A stretch of DNA of 64,000 nucleotides, from the NCBI GenBank assembly GCA_032250835.1, contig JAVVEA010000009.1:32001-96000 (forward strand), written 5' to 3'. Positions within the stretch are counted from its first letter, which is position 1. Each line of letters begins with the position of its first letter. Shown one piece after another: positions 13,206 to 42,998 of the stretch. The notes under the pieces were generated by a model. It did not search any database and was not told the DNA's origin. It saw only the letters and a program-made list of their open reading frames with translations. The translations under genes and the position numbers were made by a program. This DNA is from a bacterium. Lineage in GTDB: Bacteria; SAR324; XYD2-FULL-50-16.

Positions 13206-13230
13206 AAATGGGTACATTGTCCCCGTATTT
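13206..13230 (-). repeat. Dispersed 25-bp motif, copy a
   Basis: Reverse complement AAATACGGGGACAATGTACCCATTT, 25 bp upstream of ORF 13256. Confidence 0.7.
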
Positions 13231-13255
13231 TTAAAACGATGATCCAGGAGTTATT

Positions 13256-13969
13256 GTGGGTTCATTTGTTGGAAATGTTTCTGATTTTAAAAAGTATATA
13301 GGTCCTAGACTGAGGAATGTAGTTAACAATTTGGCTCGGCCTTATCGCATTGAAGTGGGGCAATGTCAGATTTGTAGGGCTACACAAACCTTGGAGGCCG
13401 CTCACATTCAGGGACGGGAGAGGACAATCATCATTGATGAGCTTCTAGAGAACTATTTAAATGGGGAGATTGTTACAATAGATTTAGAGGTTTTTGAAAA
13501 CCAGTTTTTTGCTGCTCATCAACCTTTGAACGAGTCGATCTTGATACTATGCAGAGCTTGCCATCGGGAGTACGACAATCAAGCCCAAGTAAAGGATCAG
13601 CCACAACTTACAAACGAGGATGTAGAAGAACTGTCAGAAGAGGCAGGTTACAGCGTTACCAATAGAGAGATTACCGACGATTTCCGGGAATTTGTTTCGG
13701 GTAATTTGCCTTGGGATGAAATTGAAAATCTACTGAACCCTACTTATAGTCGCGAAACCTTTTTGGTTCACTTCCCCATACTTAAAGAAGTTCCTGCTAA
13801 CGCGGATCAGCAGCGGTTGCGAGAATTAGCTCGTGATACAAAGGGTTACGGAAGATGGTCGCCCTTTCCTATTGCACGAGATGGGAGGGTATTTTTGGTG
13901 ACAACTCAATGGTTTGATCGTTGTCGTTCAAGATTTCTTGCTTGGAAAATGCAAATTGAAAACCGGTGA
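13256..13969 (+). CDS. Hypothetical protein with HNH-like zinc/nuclease motifs
   Basis: CQIC...LEAAH...LCRACH; AT-richer than flanks; CAGGAG RBS before GTG. Confidence 0.6.
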   Translation: MGSFVGNVSDFKKYIGPRLRNVVNNLARPYRIEVGQCQICRATQTLEAAHIQGRERTIIIDELLENYLNGEIVTIDLEVFENQFFAAHQPLNESILILCRACHREYDNQAQVKDQPQLTNEDVEELSEEAGYSVTNREITDDFREFVSGNLPWDEIENLLNPTYSRETFLVHFPILKEVPANADQQRLRELARDTKGYGRWSPFPIARDGRVFLVTTQWFDRCRSRFLAWKMQIENR

Positions 13970-13983
13970 TCAAGTACCTATTT
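13959..13983 (+). repeat. Dispersed 25-bp motif, copy b (contains the ORF stop codon)
   Basis: AAAACCGGTGATCAAGTACCTATTT; its TGA at 13967-13969 ends ORF 13256. Confidence 0.6.
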
Positions 13984-14059
13984 TCTCAAAAAAAAGCCGG
14001 TAAAAAAAACCGGATTTTAGATCAGCGCCCCGGCGCGAAGACCATGGATAGGATCAGGT

Positions 14060-14085
14060 TGATGGGTCCATTGTCCGACCGGTTT
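14060..14085 (-). repeat. Dispersed motif, copy c (degenerate)
   Basis: Reverse complement AAACCGGTCGGACAATGGACCCATCA upstream of brnT; shares ATGGGT(A/C)CATTGTCC with copy a. Confidence 0.55.
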
Positions 14086-14131
14086 GACGGTCTCGCTTGC
14101 TCAATGTACCTACATTTGTTAATATCTAAAT

Positions 14132-14407
14132 ATGGTCGAGTTTGAATGGGACGAAGAGAAAAACAGGTCCAATCAAGAAAAACATCAGGTGGCCTTCGAG
14201 GAGGCTCAAAATGTTTTTCTGGATGCCCATCGGCTGATTATTGAAGACCTGGACCATTCGAATACAGAGGAACGCTTCTACTGTATTGGAAAAGTCGGAG
14301 AAAGCCTGTTGACGGTCCGTTTCACGCTGCGAGGGGAGACCATCCGAATCATCGGGGCAGGCAAATGGCGCAAGGGAAGGAGGTTGTATGAGCAAGAAAA
14401 CCGATAA
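14132..14407 (+). CDS. brnT: BrnT family toxin
   Basis: FEWDEEKNRSNQEKHQVAFEEA, EERF..IG, IRIIGA. Confidence 0.92.
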   Translation: MVEFEWDEEKNRSNQEKHQVAFEEAQNVFLDAHRLIIEDLDHSNTEERFYCIGKVGESLLTVRFTLRGETIRIIGAGKWRKGRRLYEQENR

Positions 14408-14702
14408 ATTAGCTTATTCAGACGAGCCCGTTGTCTTCGGGAAGGTCGTCAAAGATAGAATCCCAAAGGGCCAGGAGATTAAGAAAGCGAAGGTCCGCGT
14501 CTTTAAAGAGGATGGTAGTGTTTTTGAGTCGGTTTTTGATCAAATCCGGGTTGATTTCCCTGGCTCAAAAAAAGCGGTCACCGTCCGCTATGACCAGGAT
14601 GTAATCGACTATTTCAAGTCCTTCGGACCGGGCTATCAGTCTAAAATGAACGCCGTTTTAAAGGCCTTTGTGGAACACGAAAAACATAAAACTCCCCGTT
14701 GA
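14388..14702 (+). CDS. brnA: BrnA family antitoxin
   Basis: C-terminal KKAVTVRYDQDVIDYFKSFGPGYQSKMNAVL RHH-type motif; overlaps the toxin gene. Confidence 0.9.
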   Translation: MSKKTDKLAYSDEPVVFGKVVKDRIPKGQEIKKAKVRVFKEDGSVFESVFDQIRVDFPGSKKAVTVRYDQDVIDYFKSFGPGYQSKMNAVLKAFVEHEKHKTPR

Positions 14703-14863
14703 CCACCAACATTTCAACCCGGCACTTTGAGGCCGACTACCCCAGGGCAGCCCACCGCCCCGCTACGTTTAGCCTCGTCTGTTTAGGCCTAGCCCACCCC
14801 GCCTGAGATAGGGGGTCCTTGGTATAGGACCCTACCAAAATACTCTGATCGATCACTTCCAGG

Positions 14864-14973
14864 TTGACAGTTCGTACAGGCTATATAACTATTTTGCATA
14901 TACGAAATAACCACCCCTTTCCTTACCGGTCCGGGGAGTCCTTTGCCTGGGATTATATTTCGTATATACGAAT
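14864..14973 (+). promoter_or_regulatory. Promoter region with two palindromic operator-like sites
   Basis: TTGACA at 14864; ATTTTGCATATACGAAAT (14891-14908) and ATTTCGTATATACGAAT (14957-14973). Confidence 0.55.
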
Positions 14974-14998
14974 CTTTAAACTACCTGGAGACAAAAAT

Positions 14999-16168
14999 AT
15001 GAAAGTTTTCACCTGGGCGCTGACCGCCCTCTTGCTGGCTAGCCCACTGAGCTTAATGGCCCAAGAACCGACTTTAGCAAGCCTAACCGAGGAAATAGCC
15101 CAGCTCAAAGAGCAACAGGAACAATACCGCAGCGAATCAACCAAGGTCGGTGGCTATGCCGAACTGCACTATAACGCAGTCGAAGGCCAAGAGCCGATCA
15201 CCGACTTGCACCGCTTCGTCTTGCTCTTTGAAAAACAGATCGGGCCGAATATCCGCTTCCAGAGCGAACTGGAGTTGGAGCACGCCTTTGTGCAAAGCGG
15301 TGAGGGGGAATTGGAGTTGGAGCAGGCCTTTTTGGAGTTTTCTTTGAGCCGCGAGACCCAAGCCCGCGCGGGGATTCTGTTGGTTCCCTTGGGTCTGATC
15401 AACCAAAACCACGAGCCCAACAGCTTTATGGGTGTCGAGCGCCCAGACTTCGCCAAGGTGATCATTCCTTCTACCTTCTTTGCCGAAGGAGCCGGACTAA
15501 AGGGGTCTTGGGGGCATTCTTGGCAATATCAGGCCTATTTTATGGCCCCACTGGACGCCAGCGGGTTTAGCGGCGCTAGCGGTCTGCGCGGCGGACGCCA
15601 AAAGGCCTACAAAAGCCGAGCCGGAAGTTTAGCTTTGGCCACCCGGCTGCAATATGCCCGCCCCGGCCTGCGCCTGGGCTGGTCTAGCTACCAAGGCAAC
15701 AGCGCCAATGAGGAGGTCAAGAGCGACGCCCGCGACGCTGGGGTTAAACTAGAGCAGGTTCAAGTCAGTTTTAATGCCTTGGACCTGGATTGGAACACTG
15801 CTAACTGGTCTTTGCGGGCCGAGGTGGCCCAAGGGAGCCTGTCTAACAGCGGCTTATTGAACCAAGTGTACGGGGGCCACGTAGGCAGCAGCTTGCAGGG
15901 TTATTATCTAGAACCGGCCATAAAACTCTGGGCCCAAGGGGATTCGACTCTAAAAGGATTTGTGCGTTATGAATCCCTTTCACCCCAGGCCAGCGTCGCT
16001 TCGGGTAGCGTCAACGACGCCTACCAGTATACCCGCACCACCTCCGGCCTGAACTACTGGCCCCACCCCCAAGTGGCCTTGAAAGTGGATATGGGGACCA
16101 AACAAACAGCCCAGACTGGCTCAGCAGCCCAACAGGAATGGAACCTGGGGCTCGGGTGGGTCTTTTGA
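14999..16168 (+). CDS. Outer-membrane porin-like beta-barrel protein
   Basis: Signal peptide, short coiled coil, GGYAELHYN/DLHRFVL/SELELEH motifs, terminal LGLGWVF. Confidence 0.8.
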   Translation: MKVFTWALTALLLASPLSLMAQEPTLASLTEEIAQLKEQQEQYRSESTKVGGYAELHYNAVEGQEPITDLHRFVLLFEKQIGPNIRFQSELELEHAFVQSGEGELELEQAFLEFSLSRETQARAGILLVPLGLINQNHEPNSFMGVERPDFAKVIIPSTFFAEGAGLKGSWGHSWQYQAYFMAPLDASGFSGASGLRGGRQKAYKSRAGSLALATRLQYARPGLRLGWSSYQGNSANEEVKSDARDAGVKLEQVQVSFNALDLDWNTANWSLRAEVAQGSLSNSGLLNQVYGGHVGSSLQGYYLEPAIKLWAQGDSTLKGFVRYESLSPQASVASGSVNDAYQYTRTTSGLNYWPHPQVALKVDMGTKQTAQTGSAAQQEWNLGLGWVF

Positions 16169-16728
16169 ATCCTCGCGGATTATTGCTGGCCCTGGGCCTT
16201 TGGGTAGCTCTCGGGGCCCCGGCCTTTGGGCAGGTTTTTGAGGACCCCGATGCAGCGCTGCAATCGGCGCTGCGCTCGGGGGAACAACTAACGCCGGTGA
16301 GTTGGTCTGGGTTGAGCGCTGAGGTCGCAGCGGCCCTAAAGGCCCAATCAGGCCAAGCCCTACGCCGCTCTTGGACCCGCTGCCATCAGGCCCAGTCGGC
16401 CAGCCAGCCGACCGCCTATTTATGTATCGACAACATGATCGGCAAGACCGAACCGATCACCTACTTGGCCCGGATCGCTCACCCCTCCGGAAGATTAGAG
16501 GACTTACGGTTGCTGATCTACCGTGAGTCGGTGGGGGCCGAGATAAGGCACCCGCTCTTCCTGGCGCAGTTCCTGGGCAAAGACACCCAAGCTCCCTTAG
16601 GACTCTCCCAAGATATCCAGGCCATCAGTGGAGCCACCTACAGCAGCCGGGCGGTGGCTCAAGGCAGCCGAAAATTGCTGTGGCTTTACCGTTTGTACCT
16701 TTCCAAACTTTCCACGGAACAACCATGA
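16165..16728 (+). CDS. Periplasmic FMN-binding (flavinylation target) protein
   Basis: Signal peptide, GKTEPITY, YRESVGAEI, DIQAISGATYSS ([S/T]GA[S/T] motif); start uncertain. Confidence 0.82.
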   Translation: MNPRGLLLALGLWVALGAPAFGQVFEDPDAALQSALRSGEQLTPVSWSGLSAEVAAALKAQSGQALRRSWTRCHQAQSASQPTAYLCIDNMIGKTEPITYLARIAHPSGRLEDLRLLIYRESVGAEIRHPLFLAQFLGKDTQAPLGLSQDIQAISGATYSSRAVAQGSRKLLWLYRLYLSKLSTEQP

Positions 16729-17183
16729 GTTCTCTCCCTCCGGCTCCGCGCAATATACGCCCAGATACTTGGCAGGTGGTCTTATTGATGGGCTCTTTTT
16801 CTGTTTGTCTTTTTAGCGGGTTGGGACTTTGGGCCTTAGCCGAATGGGTTCCCAAAAACCCTTTTTCGGCAACCGGGCATCCCTTAAAAACGCCCCTATT
16901 GGCCCTGCATTTAAGCGGCATGGCCTTATTGCTGATCGGCTTAGGTAGCCTGATCCCCTGGCACCTTCGGGTGATCGTCCGCCGCCCCTTGAACCTAGGT
17001 GGGTTGCACTTGGCCTTGGGGCTAAGCTTTTTATTATTTTCTGGGCTTAATATGTTGGTGGTCTTGCCTGAAGACTGGGCCAACGGGATGCGGTGGCTCC
17101 ACCGGGGGCTGGGGGTAGGGGTGCCGCTGCTGGTAGGGGCGCATTTGAGGCGCTCTAGAGCGGCGATTAAAGTTAAGGTTTAG
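16725..17183 (+). CDS. Small 4-TM membrane protein with His residues (possible heme b protein)
   Basis: Four hydrophobic segments with LHL, WHL, WLH, AHL; ATGA overlap with the FMN-binding gene. Confidence 0.6.
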   Translation: MSSLPPAPRNIRPDTWQVVLLMGSFSVCLFSGLGLWALAEWVPKNPFSATGHPLKTPLLALHLSGMALLLIGLGSLIPWHLRVIVRRPLNLGGLHLALGLSFLLFSGLNMLVVLPEDWANGMRWLHRGLGVGVPLLVGAHLRRSRAAIKVKV

Positions 17184-17290
17184 CTAAAGCACCCGAAAAA
17201 AGTTTTTGCATTTTTAAATTTTTGGTCCCTGTGTTAGCTTGTAGGCTGCCGAACCCGAATGATCCACCGCCTTTCCTAAGCCAGTATTCT

Positions 17291-18718
17291 ATGAGCAGTC
17301 TGGGCAAGATCTTGATCGTAGACGACGAGAAGCGCTCCGTCGAATCGCTGACCAGAGCGTTGGACCGGGAGTTTGAGGTGCTGGCGGCGAGCACCGCCGA
17401 AGAGGCCATGGCGCTTTTGGACGAGCACAAGATCAAGGTGATCCTCTGCGACAACCGCATGCCCGGCACCTCGGGGGTCGAACTGCTGGCCCAGGTGCGC
17501 CAGCAATGGCCCGATGTGGTGCGCCTGCTGATCTCCGCCTATTCGGACGTAGAAGACATCATCGACAGCATCAACAGCGGGGGGATCTACCAGTTCATCG
17601 CCAAGCCTTGGAACCCCAACAACTTGATGGTGATTTTAAAGAACGTGGTGATGCTCTATGACCTGCAAAAAGAAAATGCCCTGCTGGTTACCGAGACCCG
17701 CCTGACCACCGATGCGCTGCGCGAACACAACCTTACGGTCAAGAAGAAGCTCAAGGAAAACTTCCATATCAACAGCATCTACCGCTCGCCCGAATCCCCG
17801 CTGAACCAAGCATGCGAGCAGTTAATCAAGGTCGCGCCCTACGATATTTCGGTTCTGTTGACCGGTGAGTCGGGCACCGGCAAGGAGATGTTCGCCCGCG
17901 CGCTGCATTATAACTCGGGGCGTGCCGAGAAGCCCTTTGTGGCCGAAAACTGCGCCGCCTTAACCGACGAATTTTTGTCTAGCGAGCTCTTTGGCCATAA
18001 GAAGGGTGCCTTTACCGGGGCGGTGACCGACCATGTAGGCTTGCTCGAACAGGCCGACGGCGGGACGGTGTTTTTAGACGAAATCGGCGACGTAACGCCG
18101 GGCTTTCAGTTGAAATTACTGAGGGTTTTACAAGAAGGCGAATTCCGTCCCTTAGGCGGCAACCAAAGCCGCAAGGTAGACATCCGCATCGTCGCGGCGA
18201 CGAACCGCAACCTTGAAGAGGACGTCAAGGCGGGCCGGTTCCGTGGCGACCTCTATTACCGCTTGGCCACCGTCTCGATCAACCTACTGCCCCTGCGCCA
18301 GCGCCGGGTAGATATTCCTCTAATTGCCGAGCAGGTCTTGGCCAATTCCATGAGCATCTTCGGCAAACAGGTCAAGGGCTTCACGCCCGAAGCCTTGGCC
18401 ATGATCCAGGCCTTCGATTGGCCCGGCAACGTGCGGGAGTTGCAAAACGAGGTGCAGCGCTGCTTGGTCCTCTCGGCAGGCCCTTGGATCGAAGTCGAGG
18501 ACCTCTCGCCCAAACTCCGCCAAAAAGCCCCGGCCCAGGTTTCAAGCGGCAGCCTAGCCGAGCGCGTCCAGCAACTAGAAGAACAGATGATCTTAGACGC
18601 CATGTCCCGCCACCACCAAAACAAAACCAAGGTGGCCGAGGAACTGGGCCTCTCCCGCGTGGGCCTGCGCGCCAAGCTGGAGCGGTACCAGTTGGGTGAT
18701 GGGGTGGGGGCGAGTTGA
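17291..18718 (+). CDS. hoxA: Sigma54-dependent response regulator HoxA/HupR
   Basis: REC (ILCDNRMPG), AAA+ GESGTGKE and GAFTGA, Fis-type HTH LGLSRVGLRAKLERY; next to the sensory hydrogenase genes. Confidence 0.92.
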   Translation: MSSLGKILIVDDEKRSVESLTRALDREFEVLAASTAEEAMALLDEHKIKVILCDNRMPGTSGVELLAQVRQQWPDVVRLLISAYSDVEDIIDSINSGGIYQFIAKPWNPNNLMVILKNVVMLYDLQKENALLVTETRLTTDALREHNLTVKKKLKENFHINSIYRSPESPLNQACEQLIKVAPYDISVLLTGESGTGKEMFARALHYNSGRAEKPFVAENCAALTDEFLSSELFGHKKGAFTGAVTDHVGLLEQADGGTVFLDEIGDVTPGFQLKLLRVLQEGEFRPLGGNQSRKVDIRIVAATNRNLEEDVKAGRFRGDLYYRLATVSINLLPLRQRRVDIPLIAEQVLANSMSIFGKQVKGFTPEALAMIQAFDWPGNVRELQNEVQRCLVLSAGPWIEVEDLSPKLRQKAPAQVSSGSLAERVQQLEEQMILDAMSRHHQNKTKVAEELGLSRVGLRAKLERYQLGDGVGAS

Positions 18719-18859
18719 GGGGGGTGGGTGAACCGACTTCCTATAGTGGGACCCAATGGGTATAACTTAAGGGGCGGATACTTTAGCAATAAACTTTAAG
18801 ATTCATCCGACAGTGGTATCTATCGTTGTGGATTGAGGCCCATTCTAGCTAAGGCGGTG

Positions 18860-18884
18860 AAATAGGTATGCTGTCACCGGATTA
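18860..18884 (-). repeat. Dispersed 25-bp motif, copy f
   Basis: Reverse complement TAATCCGGTGACAGCATACCTATTT; provides the stop of the truncated nuclease ORF. Confidence 0.75.
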
Positions 18885-19077
18885 TAGACCTATCAATCCC
18901 CAGAAACCTCCCCGACCGATTCCGCCCGGACAGGGCGGGCTGAACACTGGGGAAGTCAAAATAACAGGTATCTCCGTCATAACAGCCCTTGAACTCCGCG
19001 CGCAGGCGCAGATCGGCGGCCTGGGTCGAGGCAGAAGCCAGTAGGAGGAGCAGGAGCAAATAAGGGGTGCGGATCAT
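18874..19077 (-). pseudogene. Truncated thermonuclease (SNase-like) remnant, 67 aa
   Basis: Signal peptide followed by CYDGDTC...RFLGID, then ends abruptly in repeat copy f. Confidence 0.65.
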
Positions 19078-19186
19078 GGGCGGTTTTGCTAAAGCGTTTA
19101 GGTACATACTGCCTGCCCTCCGCCCCTTCGAACAGGACAAAAAAGGGCAACGGGCCGCAATCCTGCAAATTCTACCTGGAGAGCAA

Positions 19187-20071
19187 ATGCCCAAAACCAG
19201 CAGCCTAACCAAAGACATCCCCGAACCCTTCCTACGCCAGCGCCGCAATATGATGCTGATCTCGGTGCTCTTGATTGCCATCGTATTTTATGGCAAGAAC
19301 CCCGATCAAACCGTCAGTCTTTCGGGGCTCACGTTCAAAATGAGTCTTTGCCAGGTCATGCTTTGGGGCTTATTCTTTTTGGTTTATTTCACCTGGCGCG
19401 CCTGGCAGCGGATTGACTTCGCGCTGTTCACCATCACCCCAGAAGACCAAAACGCCGTTCTTAGGGGCTTGGTAAATGCGGGATTTGCTTGTCATCCAAA
19501 CACCAATCTAAATGAAGTCTCTGTGGAACGCTATTCTTTGGACCGCAGCCGGGTTTCTTTTATGGCTAAAGTCGGAGAAAACGGCTTGCGGCAAGATTGC
19601 ATGATTTCTACTCATCAAGACAAGGCCGAGATTAACAATAAATTGCGCACCTTTTGTAGAAGAACTGCAAAGGGCACCCGCTTGGCTGCAAAATGCCCCG
19701 AATTAGCTGACGTAAGCGAGTTCTGGGGGCTCATTTTGTCCGAGGAGAGGGATTCACCCAATGCCATAATTCGAAACGACATTGCCCCAAAGCTCGAAGT
19801 TTTCGACTTGATGCGCAAGACGCCCAGGACCAAACAATTCTGGAAGCACCCATATTTTTCCGATTTTCACCTGCCTTTTATTTTGGCCTGGTTCGCTATG
19901 GGCCTTACGTTGGGTAAGCTCCTTCTTTTGGCTACCGACTGCAACTGGTTTTGGACGCTGACCACTGGCGGTTTTTTGGTGATGGCTTCAGTGGTTGCGG
20001 CTGTTCTGTTGCTGATCCGATCGGAAATCTGGTGGCAGTACACCATTTTCAAGGAATCAGCGCCCAAATAG
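19187..20071 (+). CDS. Hypothetical membrane protein (2 N-terminal and 2 C-terminal TM segments)
   Basis: GGAGA RBS before ATG 19187; hydrophobic segments flank a soluble domain; no family recognised. Confidence 0.65.
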   Translation: MPKTSSLTKDIPEPFLRQRRNMMLISVLLIAIVFYGKNPDQTVSLSGLTFKMSLCQVMLWGLFFLVYFTWRAWQRIDFALFTITPEDQNAVLRGLVNAGFACHPNTNLNEVSVERYSLDRSRVSFMAKVGENGLRQDCMISTHQDKAEINNKLRTFCRRTAKGTRLAAKCPELADVSEFWGLILSEERDSPNAIIRNDIAPKLEVFDLMRKTPRTKQFWKHPYFSDFHLPFILAWFAMGLTLGKLLLLATDCNWFWTLTTGGFLVMASVVAAVLLLIRSEIWWQYTIFKESAPK

Positions 20072-20144
20072 ATTTCGTATTTTCTTCGACAAGGTGGTTA
20101 ACCGGCGCATTGCCCTTCAAGCCTCAACTTGAACAAGCCTCAGC

Positions 20145-20266
20145 CCCCCTCAATGCACCGTACACTGCATACAAGGATCAAAGCTGCGGACCACCATCCA
20201 GAGTTCGGGGGCCGGTTGGTCGCCGCTGTATTTTAGGCCCTCTAAGGGCATTTCGCAGGGGCCGGG
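20145..20266 (-). repeat. 122-bp diverged duplicate of the sensory hydrogenase large-subunit 3' end
   Basis: Aligns ungapped to 21578-21699 with 7 mismatches by manual count. Confidence 0.95.
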
Positions 20267-20298
20267 AGGCCAGATTGCCCACCGGTCCAACCAAGCCT

Positions 20299-20697
20299 TC
20301 ACGCCCCCACCTCGTACTCCAGCGCCGCCTTGGCCAAAAACTCTGAGCGGTTGAGGCCTTGCTTCTTGGCCTTTTCGTCGATCTGTTCCAGCTGGTTGCT
20401 GGGCAGACTGATATTGACCCGAACGGTCTTGCTGTATCCGGCCACCAGCTTGGGGTTGACCGGCACCGGCACCAAGTGTTGGCCCGCCTCCAGCCCCTTG
20501 CGGACCTGAGCGAAGGTGGAGGGCTCGGGCACGTCCTTTTCGTCGGCCAGCCAATGGGCCAGCGCGTCTTCGGCCATTTCGACCGCTTCTTCCCAGGTTT
20601 CGCCGTAAGAGATACAGCCCGGCAAGTCGGCGAAGGTGACCGTGAACCCGCCCTCGGGTTCTTCGGTGAAGGTTGCCAGGTAGTGTAATGATTTCAT
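20299..20697 (-). CDS. hicB: HicB family antitoxin with C-terminal RHH
   Basis: GGFTVTFADLPGCISYGETWEEAVEMAEDAL; RVNISLP...ID...NRSEFL. Confidence 0.93.
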   Translation of the reverse strand: MKSLHYLATFTEEPEGGFTVTFADLPGCISYGETWEEAVEMAEDALAHWLADEKDVPEPSTFAQVRKGLEAGQHLVPVPVNPKLVAGYSKTVRVNISLPSNQLEQIDEKAKKQGLNRSEFLAKAALEYEVGA

Positions 20698-20752
20698 CCT
20701 TTCCCTATCTTTCAGGAGGTTTATAGTGACCTCTCAGCCACTTTTTCGGGGC

Positions 20753-20929
20753 TTACTTGAGACCCGCTGCCTTGAGAATGCTGTTTGCCGTCCCTATGGG
20801 GACGTCCCCTTTGTGCCGGGGGACGGTGATGGGCCGCTCACCTTCCTTAATCCACTTGGTATGCTTCGAACCCTCGTCCTTAGCCCATCCGGCTTGTTTC
20901 AGCATTTTTTCGATCTCTTTGACTTTCAT
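20753..20929 (-). CDS. hicA: HicA family toxin, 58 aa (absent from ORF track)
   Basis: Manual translation MKVKEIEKMLKQAGWAKDEGSKHTKWIKEGERPITVPRHKGDVPIGTANSILKAAGLK, upstream of hicB. Confidence 0.92.
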   Translation of the reverse strand: MKVKEIEKMLKQAGWAKDEGSKHTKWIKEGERPITVPRHKGDVPIGTANSILKAAGLK

Positions 20930-20962
20930 TTGTGTCTTAGTAGCTGTTTAGAATATGCACTA

Positions 20963-21005
20963 ATCATACACACAATACACACCAAATATCAAGAAGAATA
21001 CACAC
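20963..21005 (-). promoter_or_regulatory. hicAB promoter with three ATACACAC boxes
   Basis: Minus strand TTGATA-N18-TATGAT; ATACACAC at 20966, 20975 and 20998. Confidence 0.65.
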
Positions 21006-21058
21006 TCACCACCGATTGCCCAGAATGGAGAACCTATGCATTCTGTTTGGACCCTTTT

Positions 21059-21153
21059 AAATCAGGTGGCAGCATACCTATTTAAATAATCAGAGAAATC
21101 CGGGGACAGTAACCTATTTTTCGCCAAAAAATAAGGGGCCAGTATACTTTCTC
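21059..21153 (+). repeat. Three tandem copies (g,h,i) of the dispersed motif
   Basis: AAATCAGGTGGCAGCATACCTATTT (21059), AAATCCGGGGACAGTAACCTATTT (21096), AAATAAGGGGCCAGTATACTTTCTC (21129). Confidence 0.75.
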
Positions 21154-21181
21154 TGAGCCCGGAAGAAAAGGGCTTTAGGTT

Positions 21182-21552
21182 CCCTCTTGCGAGCGGCTTA
21201 GAGCCCCTAGCCAAGCGTAGCGGCCAAAATGCCACCTGTTCGAGCTTCGAGCGAAGCGAGGGCGAGTTTGGCATTTTAGCGGAGCGAGGCGTAGGGGGTC
21301 TTAGCCGCGAAGGTCGAGGGCTCGTTTCTTTGTTACTTTTCTTTGCGAGCCAAAGAAAGTAATCCCATCTCTTTAAACCTCCCAGTGGCTTTGTGCCTCC
21401 AAGAAGCCTGAAAAGAAGGGATGTTGGCTTCGCCAACGGTTTAGGCTGCGCAACACTCGCAGTGCTCGCGTTGTCACACACGTCGCCCTCAGCCTGCGGC
21501 CTCGAAGCTCCTTAGTGGGGCCGATGGCCCCTGGACCCCGCTTATTTTTTTT
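21182..21552. repeat. Composite structured non-coding element A
   Basis: Nested inverted repeats at 21182-21362; modules 21422-21509 and 21518-21540 are shared with 41489-41609. Confidence 0.7.
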
Positions 21553-21582
21553 CAACGGGATCAAAAGACGCTCAAGGCCCCC

Positions 21583-23028
21583 TCAATGCACCGTACACTG
21601 CATACAAGGGTCAAAGCTGCGGACCACCATCCAGAGTTCCGGGGCCGGTTGGTTGCCGGTGTATTTTAAGCCCTCCAAGGCCATTTCGCAGGGGCCGGGC
21701 TGGCCTATGGCGTCGCGGGGGGAGAAGTTCCAGCTGGTGGGGGCGACGATCTGGTAGCGGGTGAGTTTGCCTTCTTGGATTTCAATAAAGTGGCCTAGGC
21801 TGCCCCGCGCCGCCTCGACCAAGCCCTGGGCGGCACCGTTTTTAAAGGGATGCTCGCCGGGGGCGTAAAAGGGTTGGTTGAGGTCTAGTTGTTCTAGCCA
21901 TTGTTTCATCGCCCCAGTCAGCCGGGCGACCTCGATCCAGCGGGCCAAGACGCGGCTCAAGACGCTTTGGCCCCAGGTCTGGTAGGCGCTTAAAGCCAGC
22001 GGTTGCCCGTCGATCACTTGGCGGGATAAGGAGCCTACCGAAACGGGCTGGCCGCCGTAGCGGACCGCTTTGTTGTAGCTATACCGCCCCTCGCCCTCGC
22101 CGCCCAGTTGGGTAACGCCTTGGCTGGGGTGCAGCGGTTCGGTGGGGCCCTCAAGCCAAGAGGAAGCCAGGTCTTCGGTGATTTGGTCTACCTTAAGGGG
22201 CCCTAAGCCCTGTTGGTAAAAGCCGGGCGCAAATCCGCCCCAGTCCTTGCCGCCATAGGCCCCGAAGCTCATCATGGCCGTGTCGGTAGGCCCCAGCCTT
22301 TCCCAGCCCTCTGCTAAAGCAATATTCAGCCAAAAGCCCAGGTCTGATTCCCGGTGGTCTTGAACCCACTGGGTCAATTCGCCGCAGTCCTTCAACGCCA
22401 AAAATTCGGCCAGCGGCCCGCCATAGGTGCGTTGTTCTAAAAACCGCACCACCCGGCCTAAGCGGTCCAAAAATTCCGCCCGTTCGCTCAGGCTGGTTAC
22501 CTTGGCAATCCCGCCGGGCAACATAGAAATGCTGTGCGGCCATTTGCCCGCCAAGGGGCTGAGCATGCCCAAGATGGTGGCGCGGGTGTCTAGTGCTTCA
22601 AGCCAGGGGTGGCTTTGAGGGGCGAAGCGGGCGGTGGCCGCCTTATACCAGGGCTTTTGGGCAAAGGCCTGGGCCCCCAACTCGGGCCAAAAATAGAGGT
22701 AGCCGTGGGCGAAGAGGTCCGAGAGGTTTTCGGCGGCCTGCATCAAATGAAAGACCAACTGGGCGTTGCGGGGCGTCTCGACCCCGGCGGCTTGGGCTAG
22801 CGCGTTGCGCGCGGCGACGGACTGGGAGACCGAACAGATGCCGCAAACGCGCGGCGCAATGGCCAGGGCGTCTTGGGCGTCGCGCCCGACCAACATATTC
22901 TCAAATCCCCGGAACATAGGCGCGGTGATATAGGCCGCCTGGACTTGGTTTCCTTGGCGCTCCAGCCGGATTTCTAAGTCCCCTTCGATGCGCGAAAAGG
23001 GGCCCAATAGGGTTTGTTTGCCCGTCAT
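21583..23028 (-). CDS. hupV: Group 2b H2-sensing hydrogenase large subunit HupV/HoxC
   Basis: GPFSRIEGDLE, PRVCGICSVSQ, ends at DPCMQCTVH with no cleavable tail. Confidence 0.95.
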   Translation of the reverse strand: MTGKQTLLGPFSRIEGDLEIRLERQGNQVQAAYITAPMFRGFENMLVGRDAQDALAIAPRVCGICSVSQSVAARNALAQAAGVETPRNAQLVFHLMQAAENLSDLFAHGYLYFWPELGAQAFAQKPWYKAATARFAPQSHPWLEALDTRATILGMLSPLAGKWPHSISMLPGGIAKVTSLSERAEFLDRLGRVVRFLEQRTYGGPLAEFLALKDCGELTQWVQDHRESDLGFWLNIALAEGWERLGPTDTAMMSFGAYGGKDWGGFAPGFYQQGLGPLKVDQITEDLASSWLEGPTEPLHPSQGVTQLGGEGEGRYSYNKAVRYGGQPVSVGSLSRQVIDGQPLALSAYQTWGQSVLSRVLARWIEVARLTGAMKQWLEQLDLNQPFYAPGEHPFKNGAAQGLVEAARGSLGHFIEIQEGKLTRYQIVAPTSWNFSPRDAIGQPGPCEMALEGLKYTGNQPAPELWMVVRSFDPCMQCTVH

Positions 23029-25320: not shown

Positions 25321-25557
25321 GTACCGCCTGGGTAGGGAGCAAAGCAAGGGGGCACTAAGGCCCAAAAGATGCTGGGCTTATTTTACCGCTTGGGCCCGGC
25401 GGGTCAACCTATTTGTGGGTTGTTGCAGAGCCTCGAAGAATAAAAGGCGCTCTGTGTTTTGGCCGTTTTTAGGCCGAATGATTTCTGTTCAAGTAGGAAA
25501 ATTGTGATGATACTAATGCGTAGTTGTTGGGATAACACCTCTGTTTTGAAAGTAGAT

Positions 25558-26435: not shown

Positions 26436-26439
26436 CGCC

Positions 26440-26649
26440 TCAGTCTTGCACTTCCTTGATTTTGACGAAGTCGGTCAGGTCGCCATGGTACTTGATGCCG
26501 CCCTGGCCGCGGAACTTGGTGGTCTGGCCACAATGGGGGCAGACTGCCTCGTAAAATACGTTGGCGTAAAGCAAGCCGCCGTGCTGGATATCAAAGGTTT
26601 TGGCGCATTCAGGCTGGGCGCATTTTAGTTCCGAAACCAAAGCCGACAT
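26440..26649 (-). CDS. Small zinc-ribbon-like protein
   Basis: CAQPEC...CPHC; GGAGA RBS. Confidence 0.65.
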   Translation of the reverse strand: MSALVSELKCAQPECAKTFDIQHGGLLYANVFYEAVCPHCGQTTKFRGQGGIKYHGDLTDFVKIKEVQD

Positions 26650-33582: not shown

Positions 33583-33628
33583 GGGGTCGGACCCGCGTGA
33601 TGAGATATAAGGGCCTTAGCCCTTAAGG

Positions 33629-36709: not shown

Positions 36710-36814
36710 AAATTAGGCGTTAGTAGGGAAGGATATAAAATATTGCGCCCAGGCTAACCTATTTTACTAGCCGGTACAAGCCTTTATCCCTGAAAAAGTA
36801 GCTGCTTAGGACGC

Positions 36815-37609: not shown

Positions 37610-37753
37610 GCTTCAATTTAGCCAAGCACAGGGGGTCGAGGCAAGAAATTTTCGGGAATTTTAGGCTCTCATCTTTGCGCCTTGAGGCCAACCGGAGCTT
37701 CCCCTTGCCCTTAACAAGTCAGCAGGCTATCTTGAGCGCCTAAAGGAGTCTTT

Positions 37754-38932: not shown

Positions 38933-39981
38933 AAGGCCGCTGCCAGCATCAAGGCCAACTGACGCCGGTAGTCTTCAGGCGAGTTTTCGGGCACCCCGCC
39001 CACCCCTTGGCCGTAGATCAAAATTACTGGCAGGCCCTTGAGCGATTGGATGGGGTAATAACCACCAAGCGAAAAGCCCGCTGGGCTGTCGAAGGACTCG
39101 GGCCCGAATAACTCTAAAGACTTAAATTGGGCCGCCTCAAAGCTCCCAAAGAGCCGGGCCCCGCCTTCAAAGGTGACTTTGTGTTTGACCGCCAACCGGC
39201 CAAAGGAACGGGCCCGGAATTCGGCGCGGTAATAGCCGGGTATTTGGTGCGGCGAGCCGATCCCGCCGAGGGAAAAACCGGTGAACAGGTCCAAACCACT
39301 CCCTGCGCCAAACTCGGCTTCAAGGGTACTGACTCCGGCCCAGGCTTGGTCATAACCCAACTTGCCCCAGGCTTTATGGGCCTCTGTTTGGGGCTCTGGG
39401 TTGAGTTGCCAACTGGGCTGGGATTCTCGTTGCAAGCGGTAGGCGCTGGCGTCCCAGCTCAAGCCCCCTTGTTGTCCCTGGGTCTGGGTGCCGATCCTTT
39501 GTTCGCCTTGGTCGGCAGGTAACTTTAGACCGGGGTCCGTGGCTTCGGCGACTGGAGTGGCTATGTAGCGGGTCGAAACCCCTTCAACCAACCATTGGGT
39601 TTTCGGCTCATCCATTAGCAGATAACCGATCCCAAGATAGGGCGAGTGGCCGGCAAAATTGTAGGCCCGCTGGCGGCGGCCTTGATAGTAGAACGCACCG
39701 GGGTCACCGGTCGAGATCACCTCGACCCCCGACAAAAGGGCCCAGGGTCCCGCTTCGGGGCGGTAGCGTAGCGCTAATTTGGAGGTCTTGTAGTGCATCC
39801 TGAAGCTGGCGTCACTGGTGGGGTCGTAGTTCGCCACCAAAACCGGAGTGATCACCCCTTCGCCCGAGTCCAGCGGAGCAATGGCCCCTAAGGCAAAGGT
39901 CCAGGTATACTGGGCCGGACTTTGGGCCGACAAAGGAGCCGCCAACAGGCAACCGAGCACCAACAGGAAAAAAGACCGCAT
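38929..39981 (-). CDS. Hypothetical exported, probably outer-membrane beta-barrel protein
   Basis: Signal peptide, amphipathic beta pattern, terminal Phe. Confidence 0.6.
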   Translation of the reverse strand: MRSFFLLVLGCLLAAPLSAQSPAQYTWTFALGAIAPLDSGEGVITPVLVANYDPTSDASFRMHYKTSKLALRYRPEAGPWALLSGVEVISTGDPGAFYYQGRRQRAYNFAGHSPYLGIGYLLMDEPKTQWLVEGVSTRYIATPVAEATDPGLKLPADQGEQRIGTQTQGQQGGLSWDASAYRLQRESQPSWQLNPEPQTEAHKAWGKLGYDQAWAGVSTLEAEFGAGSGLDLFTGFSLGGIGSPHQIPGYYRAEFRARSFGRLAVKHKVTFEGGARLFGSFEAAQFKSLELFGPESFDSPAGFSLGGYYPIQSLKGLPVILIYGQGVGGVPENSPEDYRRQLALMLAAAF

Positions 39982-40140
39982 AAGCTTTCGAGCAATGGAG
40001 GTTTCTCGCAGCCTAAACTAGGTTGGTCTAAAAGCAAAGGAACAAAAGGCGGGGAAGACTCAAGCGGAGGGAGAAGCTTGGGGCCCCGATGGGAACCCCC
40101 ATTGAAGCCCCTAGTAGAGGCTCCAACAAAGGAAGGAAGC

Positions 40141-40302
40141 TTACTTGGCCGAAGCCTCTTGCATCTTCTTTTCAACGTCTTCGATGGCCTTTTGGTCATG
40201 CTCGTTGAGGGGGCAACCGCAAGAGTAACCGGTTTCAGAAGAGTGCATGCGAGCCTGTTCGATGTGCCACTGGGCGACTTTTAAGTGCTGATCTACGTTC
40301 AT
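40141..40302 (-). CDS. Small 53-aa protein (absent from ORF track)
   Basis: MNVDQHLKVAQWHIEQARMHSSETGYSCGCPLNEHDQKAIEDVEKKMQEASAK; GAAGGA RBS; own promoter. Confidence 0.7.
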   Translation of the reverse strand: MNVDQHLKVAQWHIEQARMHSSETGYSCGCPLNEHDQKAIEDVEKKMQEASAK

Positions 40303-40360
40303 GGTCCTTCGAGGGAAAAAGCGTTTGTCCAGGGGACTAAATAAAGTTAAGAACAGAGTA

Positions 40361-40390
40361 AATATAAAAAACCCCGTGCCATTTTGTCAA
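40361..40390 (-). promoter_or_regulatory. Sigma70-like promoter for the small ORF
   Basis: Minus strand TTGACA-N18-TATATT. Confidence 0.6.
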
Positions 40391-40518
40391 CGACTTGCGC
40401 TAAAGAGTCCGGCCCTAGTTTAAATGCATGAAAATTCAATAAGCTTCAACCGAAATCTCTTGGAAGCCGCTTGCGGTTAGGTTATCTTGACCATAGTTCA
40501 ACCCCTTCTAGGATACCT

Positions 40519-41322
40519 ATGAACATTCAATTAAAATTCCTGTTTACCGCTGCCCTACTATTTTTTTTGGCCCCCGGTCTTTGGGCCCAGGAAATCGAAA
40601 CCCGCGAGGTGGTCTATAAAGCCGACGGTCAGTCTATGGTCGGCTATTTAGCCATGCCCAAAGGGGCGGCCAAGGGCACCCCGGCGGTTTTGGTGGTGCA
40701 TGAATGGTGGGGCCAGACCGACTACCCCCGCAAGCGCGCCGAGATGCTCGCCAAGTTGGGTTACATCGCCATGGCCGTAGACATGTTCGGCGACCGGCAG
40801 ATCACCGAACACCCCAAGGAGGCCGGGGCTTTTGCCAAGGCCGTTTTCTCTAGTGCCAAAAACGTGGCCACCCGCTTTGACGCCGCCTGGGCCGCTTTGG
40901 TGGCCAACAGCCCGGCGGTTCGCGAAAAGGTAGCGGCGATTGGCTATTGTTTCGGCGGTTCGGTGGTGCTCGAAATGGCCCGCCAGGGGGCCCCTTTGGT
41001 GGCCGTGGCCAGTTTCCACGGCGGCTTGATGACGCCCAGCAAGGCGCAAAAAGGCAAGGTGCCGGCGCGGATTTACGTAGCCAACGGCGCAGCGGACCCG
41101 ATGTCCAAGCCCGAGCAGATCGAGGAATTGCATCAGGAATTTGAAGCCGCCGAGGTGGACTTTAGGTTCGAGTCCTTTGAGGCCGCCAAACATGGCTTCA
41201 CCAACCCCCAGGCTAGCGTTTACGCTGAGAAGCTAAATTTCCCGGCCCTTGGGTATAACCAAGAGGCGGACCAAAAGAGCTGGGCGCACTTGAAAGGGTT
41301 TTTGAAGGAAAGTTTTAAGTAG
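40519..41322 (+). CDS. Dienelactone hydrolase family protein (exported)
   Basis: Signal peptide, VHEWWG, GYCFGG, HGFTNP. Confidence 0.92.
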   Translation: MNIQLKFLFTAALLFFLAPGLWAQEIETREVVYKADGQSMVGYLAMPKGAAKGTPAVLVVHEWWGQTDYPRKRAEMLAKLGYIAMAVDMFGDRQITEHPKEAGAFAKAVFSSAKNVATRFDAAWAALVANSPAVREKVAAIGYCFGGSVVLEMARQGAPLVAVASFHGGLMTPSKAQKGKVPARIYVANGAADPMSKPEQIEELHQEFEAAEVDFRFESFEAAKHGFTNPQASVYAEKLNFPALGYNQEADQKSWAHLKGFLKESFK

Positions 41323-41343
41323 AGAGACGCTTGATTTAGAATG

Positions 41344-41377
41344 AAGCTAGGCCAGTGCAGCTATTGGCCTAGCTTTC
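41344..41377 (+). terminator. Probable intrinsic terminator
   Basis: AAGCTAGGCCA/TGGCCTAGCTT perfect 11-bp stem shortly after the stop codon. Confidence 0.7.
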
Positions 41378-41477
41378 ACAAACACTAAAAGCGAAAGATA
41401 AGTGGGGGCCCAGGGGATAAACGCCAATTGGGAGCCTTGAGCCCACTATGCCGGTGCCTTTACGGAAATTAGAAAGG

Positions 41478-41835
41478 AAAAAAGTAAACGGGGTCCAGGG
41501 GCCAATGGCCCTTGGGAACTTGTGTCGGCTGCGCCGACGCCTTAGGCTGGGCAATACTCGCCAGCTCGCATTGCTACCCACGCATCCCTCGGCCTTCTGC
41601 CTCGAAGCTGCTTTGCGAAGCGCAGCCGCCGAGGGAGCAGAGCCCCTTCGATGGGGCGTTAAAGGCAAAGGTGCACCAAAAAAAGAGCCAGTTCTTAATA
41701 ATCCAGCGCCTTGCGAGATTTCCCCAGAACTTGGGCAGAGCAGGGAATTGGGATTCAAAGCAGCCCTAAAACCGCAGCTTCCCGCGCTGGATTCACCCCG
41801 ATAAGCGAGCGCAGCGACGCTTGAGGGCGTGAATC
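41478..41835. repeat. Composite structured non-coding element B
   Basis: Modules homologous to 21422-21540; inverted repeats AATCCAGCGC/GCGCTGGATT (41700/41784) and GATTCAC...GTGAATC (41790-41835). Confidence 0.7.
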
Positions 41836-41854
41836 GGCAATACGCCGGCATTTT

Positions 41855-41878
41855 AAAAAGGTTACTGTCCGCTGAATT
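41855..41878 (-). repeat. Dispersed motif, copy j
   Basis: Reverse complement AATTCAGCGGACAGTAACCTTTTT upstream of ORF 41934. Confidence 0.65.
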
Positions 41879-41933
41879 ATTCAGGTTCAATAGCTTCCAG
41901 TTTAAAAATATAATTCCAGCTTTCTAAAAAACG

Positions 41934-42965
41934 ATGAAAATCAAGTTTGATCTCTTTTATTGGATTCTCGACGCGCCTCAAAACTCTTTTTGGGCAAGAC
42001 CTTTACGAATATTACTGTTGGTCCTCTGTTACTTCTCTGCTGCCAATTCCGATCCTATGATCGGAAGCATTCAATCCTTTACCAGACAGCTTGGATTACA
42101 GCTAAAAGACGTTTTTTTGTTTCTAGTCTCAGCCCCATTCGTTGGAATTGTTTGGTATTGGCGTGATGTTGATCGCAAACGAGAAATTATTCATAAAGAG
42201 AAGGAACATAATTATAAATCATTGCATGATCAAAGAATTGCCAGAGAAATGGCTCAAGTGGAACTTGTTCGCTTGGTGGGCATGTTGGACTCAGACGAAA
42301 ATTTTTCCGCTTATGTGTTTTTGGAAAGGTATTTCAAAGGCAGTTACGGTGATGAACTAAAGATGGAGGCTCTTAAGCTAATTTCTGATCGCTTTGATCG
42401 ACTGACAAGAAAAATTTCCGAAGAAATCCAACCTAACGCTACGTTGTTTCAGGAGCGACTTAATGAATTAGCCACCCGCCATAGCGGGGAAAACTATAGC
42501 ATAGAAAAATCAACGTCAATTCAAGAGGTTGTGACTATTGCACTCCGAAATATGCCCACTTGGGCCCAGGAATTCAGATCGTCTAATTGGCTTTCTTTAG
42601 TATTGGATAGGTTCCCTCTATTGGCATTTTGCAGCGTTCACCAAAGCATTAGCATCGCGGTACTGGAGCAAATTGGTCTTTTTCAATATTGCGCCTTTAG
42701 TTCGATTACTCTTGAAACCGAAAAATCAGGGAGTATGTTCCTAGGTTGTACTTTTAAGAAAGTACATATCAAGGTTCGAACAGAAATTGATCTACATTTT
42801 ATGTCATGCGTCTTAGACGAGTGCATTATTTCAGGGCCTGATGACGAGCTGTATCAATTGAGGGCCCATATACACATATCTCACTCCACTTTGGTATCCA
42901 CCCAGATACAAGTTCGCTCGGAACTTATCGAAATAATTCCAGAAATCAGTTCTTGTTCAGATTAA
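41934..42965 (+). CDS. Hypothetical membrane-anchored protein with pentapeptide-like C-terminus
   Basis: Two N-terminal TM segments, coiled coil, FxxCxF/L periodicity near the C-terminus; AT-rich. Confidence 0.65.
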   Translation: MKIKFDLFYWILDAPQNSFWARPLRILLLVLCYFSAANSDPMIGSIQSFTRQLGLQLKDVFLFLVSAPFVGIVWYWRDVDRKREIIHKEKEHNYKSLHDQRIAREMAQVELVRLVGMLDSDENFSAYVFLERYFKGSYGDELKMEALKLISDRFDRLTRKISEEIQPNATLFQERLNELATRHSGENYSIEKSTSIQEVVTIALRNMPTWAQEFRSSNWLSLVLDRFPLLAFCSVHQSISIAVLEQIGLFQYCAFSSITLETEKSGSMFLGCTFKKVHIKVRTEIDLHFMSCVLDECIISGPDDELYQLRAHIHISHSTLVSTQIQVRSELIEIIPEISSCSD

Positions 42966-42973
42966 GTAAGCTT

Positions 42974-42998
42974 TAATCCGGTGGCAGTATACAAATTT
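42974..42998 (+). repeat. Dispersed 25-bp motif, copy k
   Basis: TAATCCGGTGGCAGTATACAAATTT, 8 bp after the stop of ORF 41934. Confidence 0.7.

Follow-up and report, generated by a model that had tools for sequence, protein, structure and literature searches.

A Dispersed 25-Base Repeat of a SAR324-Type Bacterium and Its Probable Place in a TIRtron

Described Systems and Their Relation to the Repeat

The TIRYT/TIRtron arrangement was defined by Di Nocera, De Gregorio and Rocco (2013; PMC3733652), whose account describes a GGGGWSAS motif and families of terminal inverted repeats (TIRs) in dimers or clusters. The 25-base repeat described here, which recurs in a 64,000-nt stretch of contig JAVVEA010000009.1 (positions 32,001–96,000; hereafter the window) and elsewhere in the genome containing it (G000), is most probably the TIR of a TIRtron whose enzyme is a TIR-associated tyrosine transposase (TIRYT). 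As in the TIRtrons of that account, a RAYT-like HUH/Tyr protein is encoded by a gene lying between long inverted repeats instead of GTAG REPs, and the repeat core fits GGGGWSAS: GGGGACAG is carried by 10 of 50 copies and by the repeats of the orthologues, and GGTGACAG by the consensus. The repeats are moderately abundant and occur as singles, dimers and clusters, a trait given for some TIRtron members only. Differences are the SAR324-type host lineage, a T in the consensus at the third G of GGGGWSAS, and a strong concentration in toxin–antitoxin/defense islands, which is not predicted by the TIRtron model and is not among the traits given in the relevant parts of PMC3733652. The initial annotation had proposed an undescribed system. 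The inverted-repeat-flanked gene, GGGGWSAS-type core and dispersed copies are those of the TIRYT/TIRtron as set out in the relevant parts of PMC3733652 and PMC6006769; the repeat system is thus not undescribed but fits a known arrangement, and the candidate “undescribed cassette system” is removed. What the locus adds is an amplified REPIN-like population in SAR324-type bacteria for the TIRYT class, which is little studied and often described without dispersed repeats.

Subclass 2.1 of the TnpA-Y1 proteins (Quentin et al., 2018; PMC6006769) is the same as Bertels group 1 (PMC5581495). The motifs given for it are NHVH or NH[YF]H (HuH motif), W[EQ] or FQ (W-motif), and YIELNP or Y[IV]HLNP (Y-motif). 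The transposase probably corresponds to this subclass, sharing the NHxH pattern, the FQ W-motif and the class-2 tyrosine signature Y---NP, with individual strings (NHIH, or NHVH in four of seven orthologues; FQ; YVERNP) that only approximate those of subclass 2.1. Further likenesses to the published description are a conserved SS in the tail (W138-S139-S140 here), a length of 219 aa (median, 238) and a low copy number; the commonest 16-mer beside the gene is found just 9 times, the figure reported for group 1 (PMC5581495) being about 12. In their description of the subclass, Quentin et al. report no REP-like sequence, whereas a dispersed family exists here. The C-terminal HTH-like extension that they describe (Bac_DnaA_C, HTH_23 or HTH_28) was not detected by Pfam, which at E 0.01 or better gives only Y1_Tnp and no HTH/DnaA-like domain; residues 141–204 instead constitute a conserved helical tail, confidently folded in the AF2 model.

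The REPIN–RAYT system (Bertels and Rainey, 2011; E. coli TnpA-REP, PDB 4ER8) resembles the present one in having a single-copy Y1 transposase with its own repeat on either side, inverted hairpin-forming doublets and extragenic placement, and TnpA-REP is the nearest solved fold. In contrast, the consensus here has no 5′ GT[AG]G tag (neither GTAG nor GTGG), copies number tens instead of hundreds, and the protein scores 63 bits against the NCBIfam RAYT equivalog NF047646, below its cut-off of 80. In addition, the single unit is not a palindrome. The hairpin proposed for it in the initial annotation is not more stable than its shuffled counterparts (−1.4 kcal/mol, z −0.41) and lacks compensatory change, Watson–Crick pairing being retained in 19 of 50 copies for pair 6–21 and in 26 of 50 for pair 9–18. 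The missing tag, self-folding and covariation and the sub-threshold NF047646 score led to rejection of a canonical REP/RAYT element (REPtron). IS200/IS605 elements, which have Y---Q, are multi-copy and often carry tnpB, were also rejected: here there is Y---NP, one copy, and cold-shock and GFA neighbors. Integron attC/IntI systems likewise have imperfect repeats that form hairpins and lie between small accessory genes, toxin–antitoxin pairs among them, but the genes here are not co-oriented.

Copies in the Genome and the Window

The consensus of the dispersed repeat over the whole G000 genome is AAATCAGGTGACAGTATACCTATTT. Its conserved span is exactly 25 nt, with background information content on either side, and positions 7–14 read GGKGACAG, position 9 being G in 10 and T in 35 of 50 copies. 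The motif is a real repeat, as the initial annotation supposed: a refined profile HMM gives 78 genomic matches of at least 8 bits, falling into 36 loci, against 1 in the reversed genome, and ungapped matching with at most 7 mismatches gives 65 against 1 in the control. By crude gene calls covering 87% of the genome, 46 of 48 copies are extragenic; many are found at gene 3′ ends. There are 12 solo 5′ arms (control, 0) and 8 solo 3′ halves (control, 8). Copies without a gene take several forms: singles; doublets of a forward and then a reverse copy, whose arms are separated by 4 to about 75 nt; compact hairpins, in which a 13-nt 5′ arm (AAATCAGGTGACA) is combined with a complete reverse copy; and clusters, either tandem or nested.

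All window matches of at least 8 bits lie inside three low-GC patches (Table 1), in agreement with the earlier confinement of the motif to accessory patches; the best match in the reversed window has 6.3 bits. The literal pattern of the initial annotation, allowing 3 mismatches, occurs at two window sites, 18860(−) and 21059(+), with none expected in shuffles. Its list of copies holds for four strong and two weak members; two others are marginal, one, at 14060(−), has no support in the window search, and the strong copy at 20024(+) was absent from it. Two ORFs, 13256–13969(+) and 18874–19281(−), do take their TGA stop from the motif, because the consensus itself contains GG-TGA-CAG.

Table 1. 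Repeat copies and associated genes in the window (positions as in the window; HMM scores in bits).
Feature	Position	Strand	Evidence
Weak degenerate copy, just past hypD stop codon	13205–13231	−	8.4 bits, E 0.24 in window; 6 mismatches
Orphan 237-aa ORF, cargo of patch 1	13256–13969	+	No Pfam or PADLOC family
Marginal copy, gives TGA stop to ORF 13256–13969	13959–13983	+	7 mismatches ungapped; no full HMM match
BrnT toxin (14132–14407) and BrnA antitoxin (14388–14702)	14132–14702	+	PF04365 E 2.8e-25; PF14384 E 4.6e-15
Strong copy	18859–18885	−	28.4 bits; 1 mismatch to the initial pattern
ORF stopping on TGA in repeat	18874–19281	−	No family match
Orphan 334-aa ORF, 3′ end crosses repeat at 20024	19067–20071	+	No Pfam or PADLOC family
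Strong copy (C43:52025)	20024–20050	+	21.9 bits; 5 mismatches
HicB antitoxin (20299–20697) and HicA toxin (20753–20929)	20299–20929	−	PF15919 E 3.1e-24; PF07927 E 6.5e-15
Span of three tandem copies	21058–21153	+	Sequence and HMM
Tandem copy 1, strong	21058–21084	+	29.6 bits
Tandem copy 2, strong, 1-nt deletion	21095–21121	+	22.1 bits
Tandem copy 3, marginal	21129–21153	+	5.3 bits, below reversed-window best of 6.3
Weak degenerate copy	41855–41875	−	8.9 bits, E 0.16
Orphan 343-aa ORF, cargo of patch 3	41934–42965	+	No Pfam or PADLOC family; GC 0.40
Strong copy	42973–43000	+	24.4 bits
HigB-type toxin (43157–43447) and HTH antitoxin-like gene (43444–43851)	43157–43851	+	PF09907 E 4.2e-19; PF13443 E 0.0046, below its cut-off
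Marginal copy	43920–43944	+	4.9 bits, inside control range

The Transposase Gene and Its Orthologues

G000 has a single Y1/HUH transposase gene (C43:2516–3175), located 29 kb ahead of the window on the contig to which the window belongs. Its product matches Pfam PF01797 (Y1_Tnp; E 6.5e-11), and its sole NCBIfam match is REP_Tyr_transpos (E 2.6e-17). His60, His62 and Tyr119 (within RYVERNP) are invariant in 31 sequences. The best PDB match of the protein profile is TnpA-REP (4er8_A; E 0.0042), which is also the top Foldseek match of the AF2 model (pLDDT 92.6; E 3.8e-8, TM 0.70 on target), followed by IS608 and ISDra2 TnpA. Inverted copies flank the ORF at C43:2441–2465(+) and 3169–3193(−): the forward copy lies about 50 nt upstream of the gene, and the reverse copy overlaps its stop codon. 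The suggestion of a RAYT-like HUH tyrosine transposase as the enzyme of these sites is thereby borne out, with a motif-flanked gene outside the window whose product would act in trans. The neighbors of this gene are a cold-shock gene and a GFA gene.

The same 25-mer, with at most 3 mismatches, is present in 11 of 31 related genomes (up to 82 copies; none in reversed-pattern controls) and is the same letter for letter between genera whose transposases share only about 50–63% identity. Six full-length orthologues (34–63% identity) were examined, from G015, G008, G026, G009 and, twice, G012. Five of them (G008, G012:C20, G015, G012:C66 and G026) are flanked forward-then-reverse by variants of their own, which have a common GGKGACA core and carry GGGGACAG, GGGGACAC or GGGGACAT; around the sixth (G009:C242), no flanking match to the G000 consensus was found at up to 8 mismatches. 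A partial transposase copy in G017 has repeats on both sides, and a broken one in G004 has a repeat only at its 3′ side. In G008, G012 and G026, hardly any amplification is seen for the variants around the orthologues (2–5 copies each). G016 (25 copies), G014 (6) and G007 (3) contain the repeat, but their assemblies, which are 93, 68 and 97% complete, respectively, yielded no orthologue with more than 37% identity.

As a TIRtron, the element would function as follows. In single-stranded DNA, the two arms would pair into a long hairpin, of which the TIRYT would recognize the GGKGACA-containing arm, and it would cut and rejoin the strand by means of the HUH metal site (His60/His62) and the catalytic Tyr119. 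Doublets would thereby be copied in trans into intergenic DNA, often beside or inside older copies, as has been proposed for REPINs and RAYTs. At the level of related genomes rather than strains, comparison revealed neither a transposition event nor an empty site or excision junction.

Doublets, Gene Islands and Alternative Readings

Neighboring copies at most 100 nt apart are arranged genome-wide as +− (6), ++ (3) and −− (2), and never as −+. Throughout a 70-kb stretch of G015, clusters of several copies consist without exception of forward copies followed by reverse copies. Two doublets fold strongly (−23.9 kcal/mol, z −12.6; −29.9 kcal/mol, z −7.1), and the doublets on C5 have a common spacer, which indicates that whole units were copied. 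The stretch 18790–18890 of the window folds no better than shuffles.

The link between the repeats and toxin–antitoxin and defense islands is real, and the earlier placement of the motif in accessory patches rich in toxin–antitoxin genes stands. Seven of 14 toxin–antitoxin loci have a copy no more than 1 kb away, whereas this holds for 2.6% of the genome; the families were chosen after some loci had been seen, and when those loci are omitted the figure is 3 of 10.

It has been proposed that reverse-then-forward pairs are recombination or cleavage sites bounding mobile cassettes, with integron- or pdif-like capture of toxin–antitoxin and orphan genes, which is improbable. The co-localization of copies with toxin–antitoxin and defense genes across the genome is consistent with such capture, as is the integron-like cargo of the G015 islands (GNAT, glyoxalase, methyltransferases, HEPN/NTase). 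Patches 1 and 2 also lie at a synteny break relative to G013 and G007, in which only hypA stands between hypD and the gene for the NiFe hydrogenase large subunit. However, the polarity said to be constant is not so genome-wide: among 15 pairs 100–4000 nt apart, 6 are −+, around single small operons, but 4 are ++, 3 are +− and 2 are −−. Because a doublet or cluster occupies nearly every island gap, each small operon lies between a reverse copy to the left and a forward copy to the right; this order is a by-product of doublet geometry in successive intergenic gaps, not a cassette boundary. The sole proven gene-carrying unit, moreover, has the opposite polarity (forward copy, transposase, reverse copy), and genes of both strands occur within one patch. 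For the cargo of patches 2 and 3, no DNA match exists in five relatives that bear the repeat; at the DNA level, the genomes have only the repeats in common, which argues against inverted pairs bracketing cargo as cassettes. The best match to the integron integrase model (TIGR02249) in G000 reaches 67 bits, where the cut-off is 265. An integron integrase that passes TIGR02249 is encoded in each of G015, G004 and G016, but the repeat is absent from these relatives' IntI loci at up to 7 mismatches. The 25-mer and the inspected doublets contain neither attC core (RYYYAAC or GTTRRRY), consistent with the earlier statement that the motif matches neither attC nor Xer sites.

The end-repeats of the TIRtron might also be more than selfish. 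The island doublets would then be shared, lineage-wide junctions at which operons are swapped by the TIRYT or by recombination between repeats, as a single-strand-transposase counterpart of the integron, a doubtful extension to which we give little credence. If island co-location and cross-genus conservation of the 25-mer do reflect gene turnover, Y1 transposases would be linked to the building of defense islands.

That the hairpin doublets are mainly regulatory or structural, kept as bidirectional terminators, mRNA stabilizers or insulators between independently acquired operons, is very unlikely. The doublet hairpins are very stable, with an A-run (AAA) before and a T-run (TTT) after them; copies are extragenic, many at gene 3′ ends, and in PMC3733652 REPs are described as transcribed RNA elements downstream of genes. 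Such a role does not account for the repeats around the transposase gene in six genomes; many of the G000 copies, which are single or degenerate, do not fold, and the whole window has no Rfam match.

That the copies resemble each other by chance, or through a low-complexity AT-rich signal of intergenic DNA without common origin, has next to no probability: four of the copies first listed (13959, 14060, 21129 and ~43918) are at or below control level, but the excess over the reversed genome at 8 bits or more, with none expected in shuffles, and the letter-perfect copies in other genera refute it for the family as a whole.

By eye, a degenerate forward-like stretch is visible about 40 nt upstream of the copy at 18859–18885.

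Genomic census of the 25-nt repeat

The 25-nt repeat is a real family in the genome under study (3.66 Mb in 43 contigs), with the whole-genome consensus AAATCAGGTGACAGTATACCTATTT and a conserved span of exactly 25 nt. Ungapped matching at up to seven mismatches yields 65 sites versus 1 in the reversed genome. A profile HMM yields 48 copies with E-values up to 0.1 and, after one round of refinement, 78 matches of at least 8 bits, spread over 36 loci, versus 1 in the reversed genome. Nearly all of the 48 copies (46/48) lie outside crude gene calls, which cover 87% of the genome. Within the window (C43:32001-96000), all matches of at least 8 bits are located inside the three low-GC patches, in agreement with the confinement to accessory patches noted in the initial annotation. 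Its literal pattern recovers 18860(-) and 21059(+) at up to three mismatches (0 expected from shuffles) but no other window site, because most copies in the window differ from the family consensus at several positions. Its list of copies overlooked the strong copy 20024(+) and included 14060(-), which is supported by neither the mismatch scan nor the HMM. Rfam has no match anywhere in the window. The final ~15 codons of an orphan 334-aa ORF (19067-20071) pass through the repeat copy at 20024-20050.

Locations of repeat copies, the transposase locus and integron integrases (contigs without a genome handle belong to the genome under study; G015, G004 and G016 are related genomes)
Feature	Location	Strand	Remarks
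Strong repeat copy	window 18859	-	refined HMM
Strong repeat copy	window 20024	+	refined HMM
Strong repeat copy	window 21058	+	refined HMM
Strong repeat copy	window 21095	+	refined HMM
Strong repeat copy	window 42973	+	refined HMM
Weak repeat copy	window 13205	-	refined HMM, above control
Weak repeat copy	window 41855	-	refined HMM, above control
Marginal repeat copy	window 21129	+	refined HMM
Marginal repeat copy	window 43920	+	refined HMM
Repeat match	window 13959	+	7-mismatch match, nothing better
Transposase ORF	C43:2516-3175		219 aa
Y1_Tnp match	C43:2594-2884		Pfam
Flanking repeat copy	C43:2441-2465	forward	
Flanking repeat copy	C43:3169-3193	reverse	across the stop codon
Second dispersed repeat	window 21187-21211		
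Second dispersed repeat	C39:77050		
Second dispersed repeat	C14:7900		
Second dispersed repeat	C13:47135		
Second dispersed repeat	C38:150758		others besides those listed
Integron integrase	G015:C89:580-1518		above TIGR02249 cut-off, near contig end
Integron integrase	G015:C77:5115-6059		above TIGR02249 cut-off, near contig end
Integron integrase	G004:C26:802-1740		above TIGR02249 cut-off, near contig end
Integron integrase	G016:C157:1430-2368		above TIGR02249 cut-off, near contig end

The transposase and its class

The genome contains one match to Pfam Y1_Tnp, in a transposase gene that is bracketed by a forward and a reverse copy of the repeat. Its position, 29 kb ahead of the window, explains why the initial annotation saw no enzyme. 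The protein matches PF01797 at E 6.5e-11, and its sole NCBIfam match is the RAYT model NF047646 (63 bits, under the 80-bit cut-off). His60 and His62 (H60-x-H62) and Tyr119 (in RYVERNP) are invariant in an alignment of 31 homologues. The single protein has no match among PDB sequences, whereas a seven-sequence profile finds E. coli TnpA-REP as its best match (4er8_A; E 0.0042), and an AlphaFold2 model (pLDDT 92.6) has 4er8_A as its top fold match (E 3.8e-8), ahead of the IS608, ISDra2 and IS200 transposases.

At up to three mismatches, the 25-mer is present in 11 of 31 related genomes, the genome under study counted among them (82 copies in G015, 25 in G016, 23 in G017, 8 in G004 and 6 in G014); the reversed pattern gives 0 in every one of the 31. 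Orthologues of the transposase occur in G015 (63% identity), G008 (59%), G012 (54% and 53%) and G026 (45%); the G004 copy is broken and the G017 copy partial. Five of the six full-length orthologues examined carry their own repeat in forward-then-reverse flanks. The repeat is the same 25-mer in G015 and a lineage variant in G008, G012 (two) and G026, with GGGGACA kept in all, and the variants have just 2-5 copies per genome. The flanks of a G009 gene (34% identical) have no match to the consensus of the genome under study. Homologues and records with the exact 23-mer come mostly from sources named 'SAR324 cluster bacterium'. The exact 23-nt core is also found as single copies in two MAGs, one of Gammaproteobacteria and one of Phycisphaerae (L075, L085), which could reflect horizontal spread or mis-binning.

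TIRYTs (TIR-associated tyrosine transposases) and TIRtrons (TIRYT genes between their inverted repeats) are names for RAYT-like genes whose flanking inverted repeats are of a non-GTAG type; in the cited sections of that work, the common TIRtron motif is GGGGWSAS, and some TIR families are moderately abundant, in dimers or clusters (Di Nocera et al., 2013; PMC3733652). Most TIRYTs are equated with TnpA-Y1 subclass 2.1, whose members share the FQ and Y---NP motifs and an SS motif in the tail, have a median length of 238 aa and are prevalent among the epsilon-, beta- and delta-proteobacteria; no REPs are reported for the subclass in the cited sections (Quentin et al., 2018; PMC6006769). The flanking 16-mer has 9 occurrences in the genome under study, versus ~12 given for group 1 in the cited part of Bertels et al. 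(2017; PMC5581495). The system fits the TIRYT/TIRtron kind, and the repeat family is accounted for as a population of TIRs belonging to a TIRYT, an already known kind. Repeat copies without a close transposase orthologue in the G016, G014 and G007 assemblies count against this reading. Canonical GTAG REP, IS200/IS605 and integron systems were considered, and the system fails the tests for each.

Repeat arrangement and the cassette reading

The typical unit in G015 is a forward copy, 4 nt and a reverse copy, and forward copies precede reverse copies in every multi-copy cluster of a 70-kb contig of that genome (C84). In the genome under study, neighbors up to 100 nt apart are ordered +- in 6 cases, ++ in 3, -- in 2 and -+ in 0, and those 100-4000 nt apart -+ in 6, ++ in 4, +- in 3 and -- in 2. 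Forward-then-reverse doublets, or their remnants, in successive gaps leave a reverse copy to the left and a forward copy to the right of the operon between them. The order of reverse copy, cargo and forward copy, which the initial annotation took for cassette polarity, is therefore seen but is accounted for by such doublets, and the polarity of the transposase gene (forward, gene, reverse) is the opposite. When patches 2 and 3 are compared with five repeat-bearing relatives, there is no DNA match except the repeats themselves. The cassette hypothesis is not supported. One forward-genes-reverse unit on contig C1 (81913-83133), its polarity matching that of the transposase locus, encloses a PIN-domain gene split in two ORFs (82502-82810 and 82798-83037).

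As single-stranded DNA, a doublet has a very stable fold (-23.9 kcal/mol, z -12.6), and a nested cluster of the genome under study reaches -29.9 kcal/mol (z -7.1). A stem within the single unit had been proposed; it has no compensatory change, and the 25-mer alone, like both transposase-flanking copies, folds no better than shuffles. Solo 13-nt 5' arms exceed the control (12 vs 0) and abut full copies or form a compact hairpin with a full reverse copy; solo 3' halves are not above chance (8 vs 8). Two doublets on contig C5 have a 32-nt spacer in common, which indicates that whole doublets were copied; beyond this, the mechanism of repeat spread is one that we infer.

Synteny around the hydrogenase locus (window 12057-23028) was compared for empty sites; the flanking hydrogenase gene has an orthologue only in G013 and G007, from two related genera. 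In both (L039 and L040), hypD-hypA lies next to the NiFe hydrogenase large-subunit gene in convergent orientation. In the genome under study, the region is rearranged over the 8.4 kb between hypD and the large-subunit gene. This stretch contains patches 1 and 2, which are located at the synteny break, and a block including a sigma-54 activator; hypA homologues lie elsewhere (window 1823-2152 and contig C40). The G013 and G007 region is too distant and rearranged to give empty-site boundaries at base level. A metagenome scan with the hydrogenase protein gave six loci, all at up to 45% identity and therefore none from a close strain. A public soil run contains 10% of the sampled words; its contigs align only as short pieces of ~85-95% likeness, none of them spans a patch, and the joints listed belong to an unreliable kind.

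The integron/attC reading is rejected because IntI is absent from the genome (best 67 bits vs a cut-off of 265) and, in G015, G004 and G016, where IntI passes the TIGR02249 cut-off, the repeat is absent from the IntI loci.

Toxin-antitoxin and defence islands

The repeats are concentrated in toxin-antitoxin and defence islands, a pattern that the TIRYT reading does not predict. Their neighbors in the window are BrnT/BrnA, HicA/HicB, and HigB with an HTH gene; those elsewhere are CopG/BrnA-like, a ThsB-like TIR-domain protein, HigB-like, TumE with HVO_A0114, ParE, HicB, a DrmC-like PLD nuclease, a split PIN gene, and HTH_3 with DUF6932. For four toxin-antitoxin families, 7 of 14 loci have a copy no more than 1 kb away, versus 2.6% of the genome, although the families were chosen after four of those loci were seen, without which the count is 3 of 10. 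Three orphan cargo ORFs have no PADLOC or Pfam family. A ParE remnant (C38:151187-151306; profile positions 47-89 only, in a 44-aa frame) stops 3 nt short of a forward repeat copy.

A second dispersed repeat has a 25-nt core (~24 copies at up to four mismatches) in a conserved block of ~60-100 nt, and frequently follows a forward TIR repeat copy, 60-100 nt downstream. The commonest 16-mers in the genome, at 46-47 copies apiece, overlap one another and together make up a single longer palindromic repeat, CRISPR-repeat-like in appearance.
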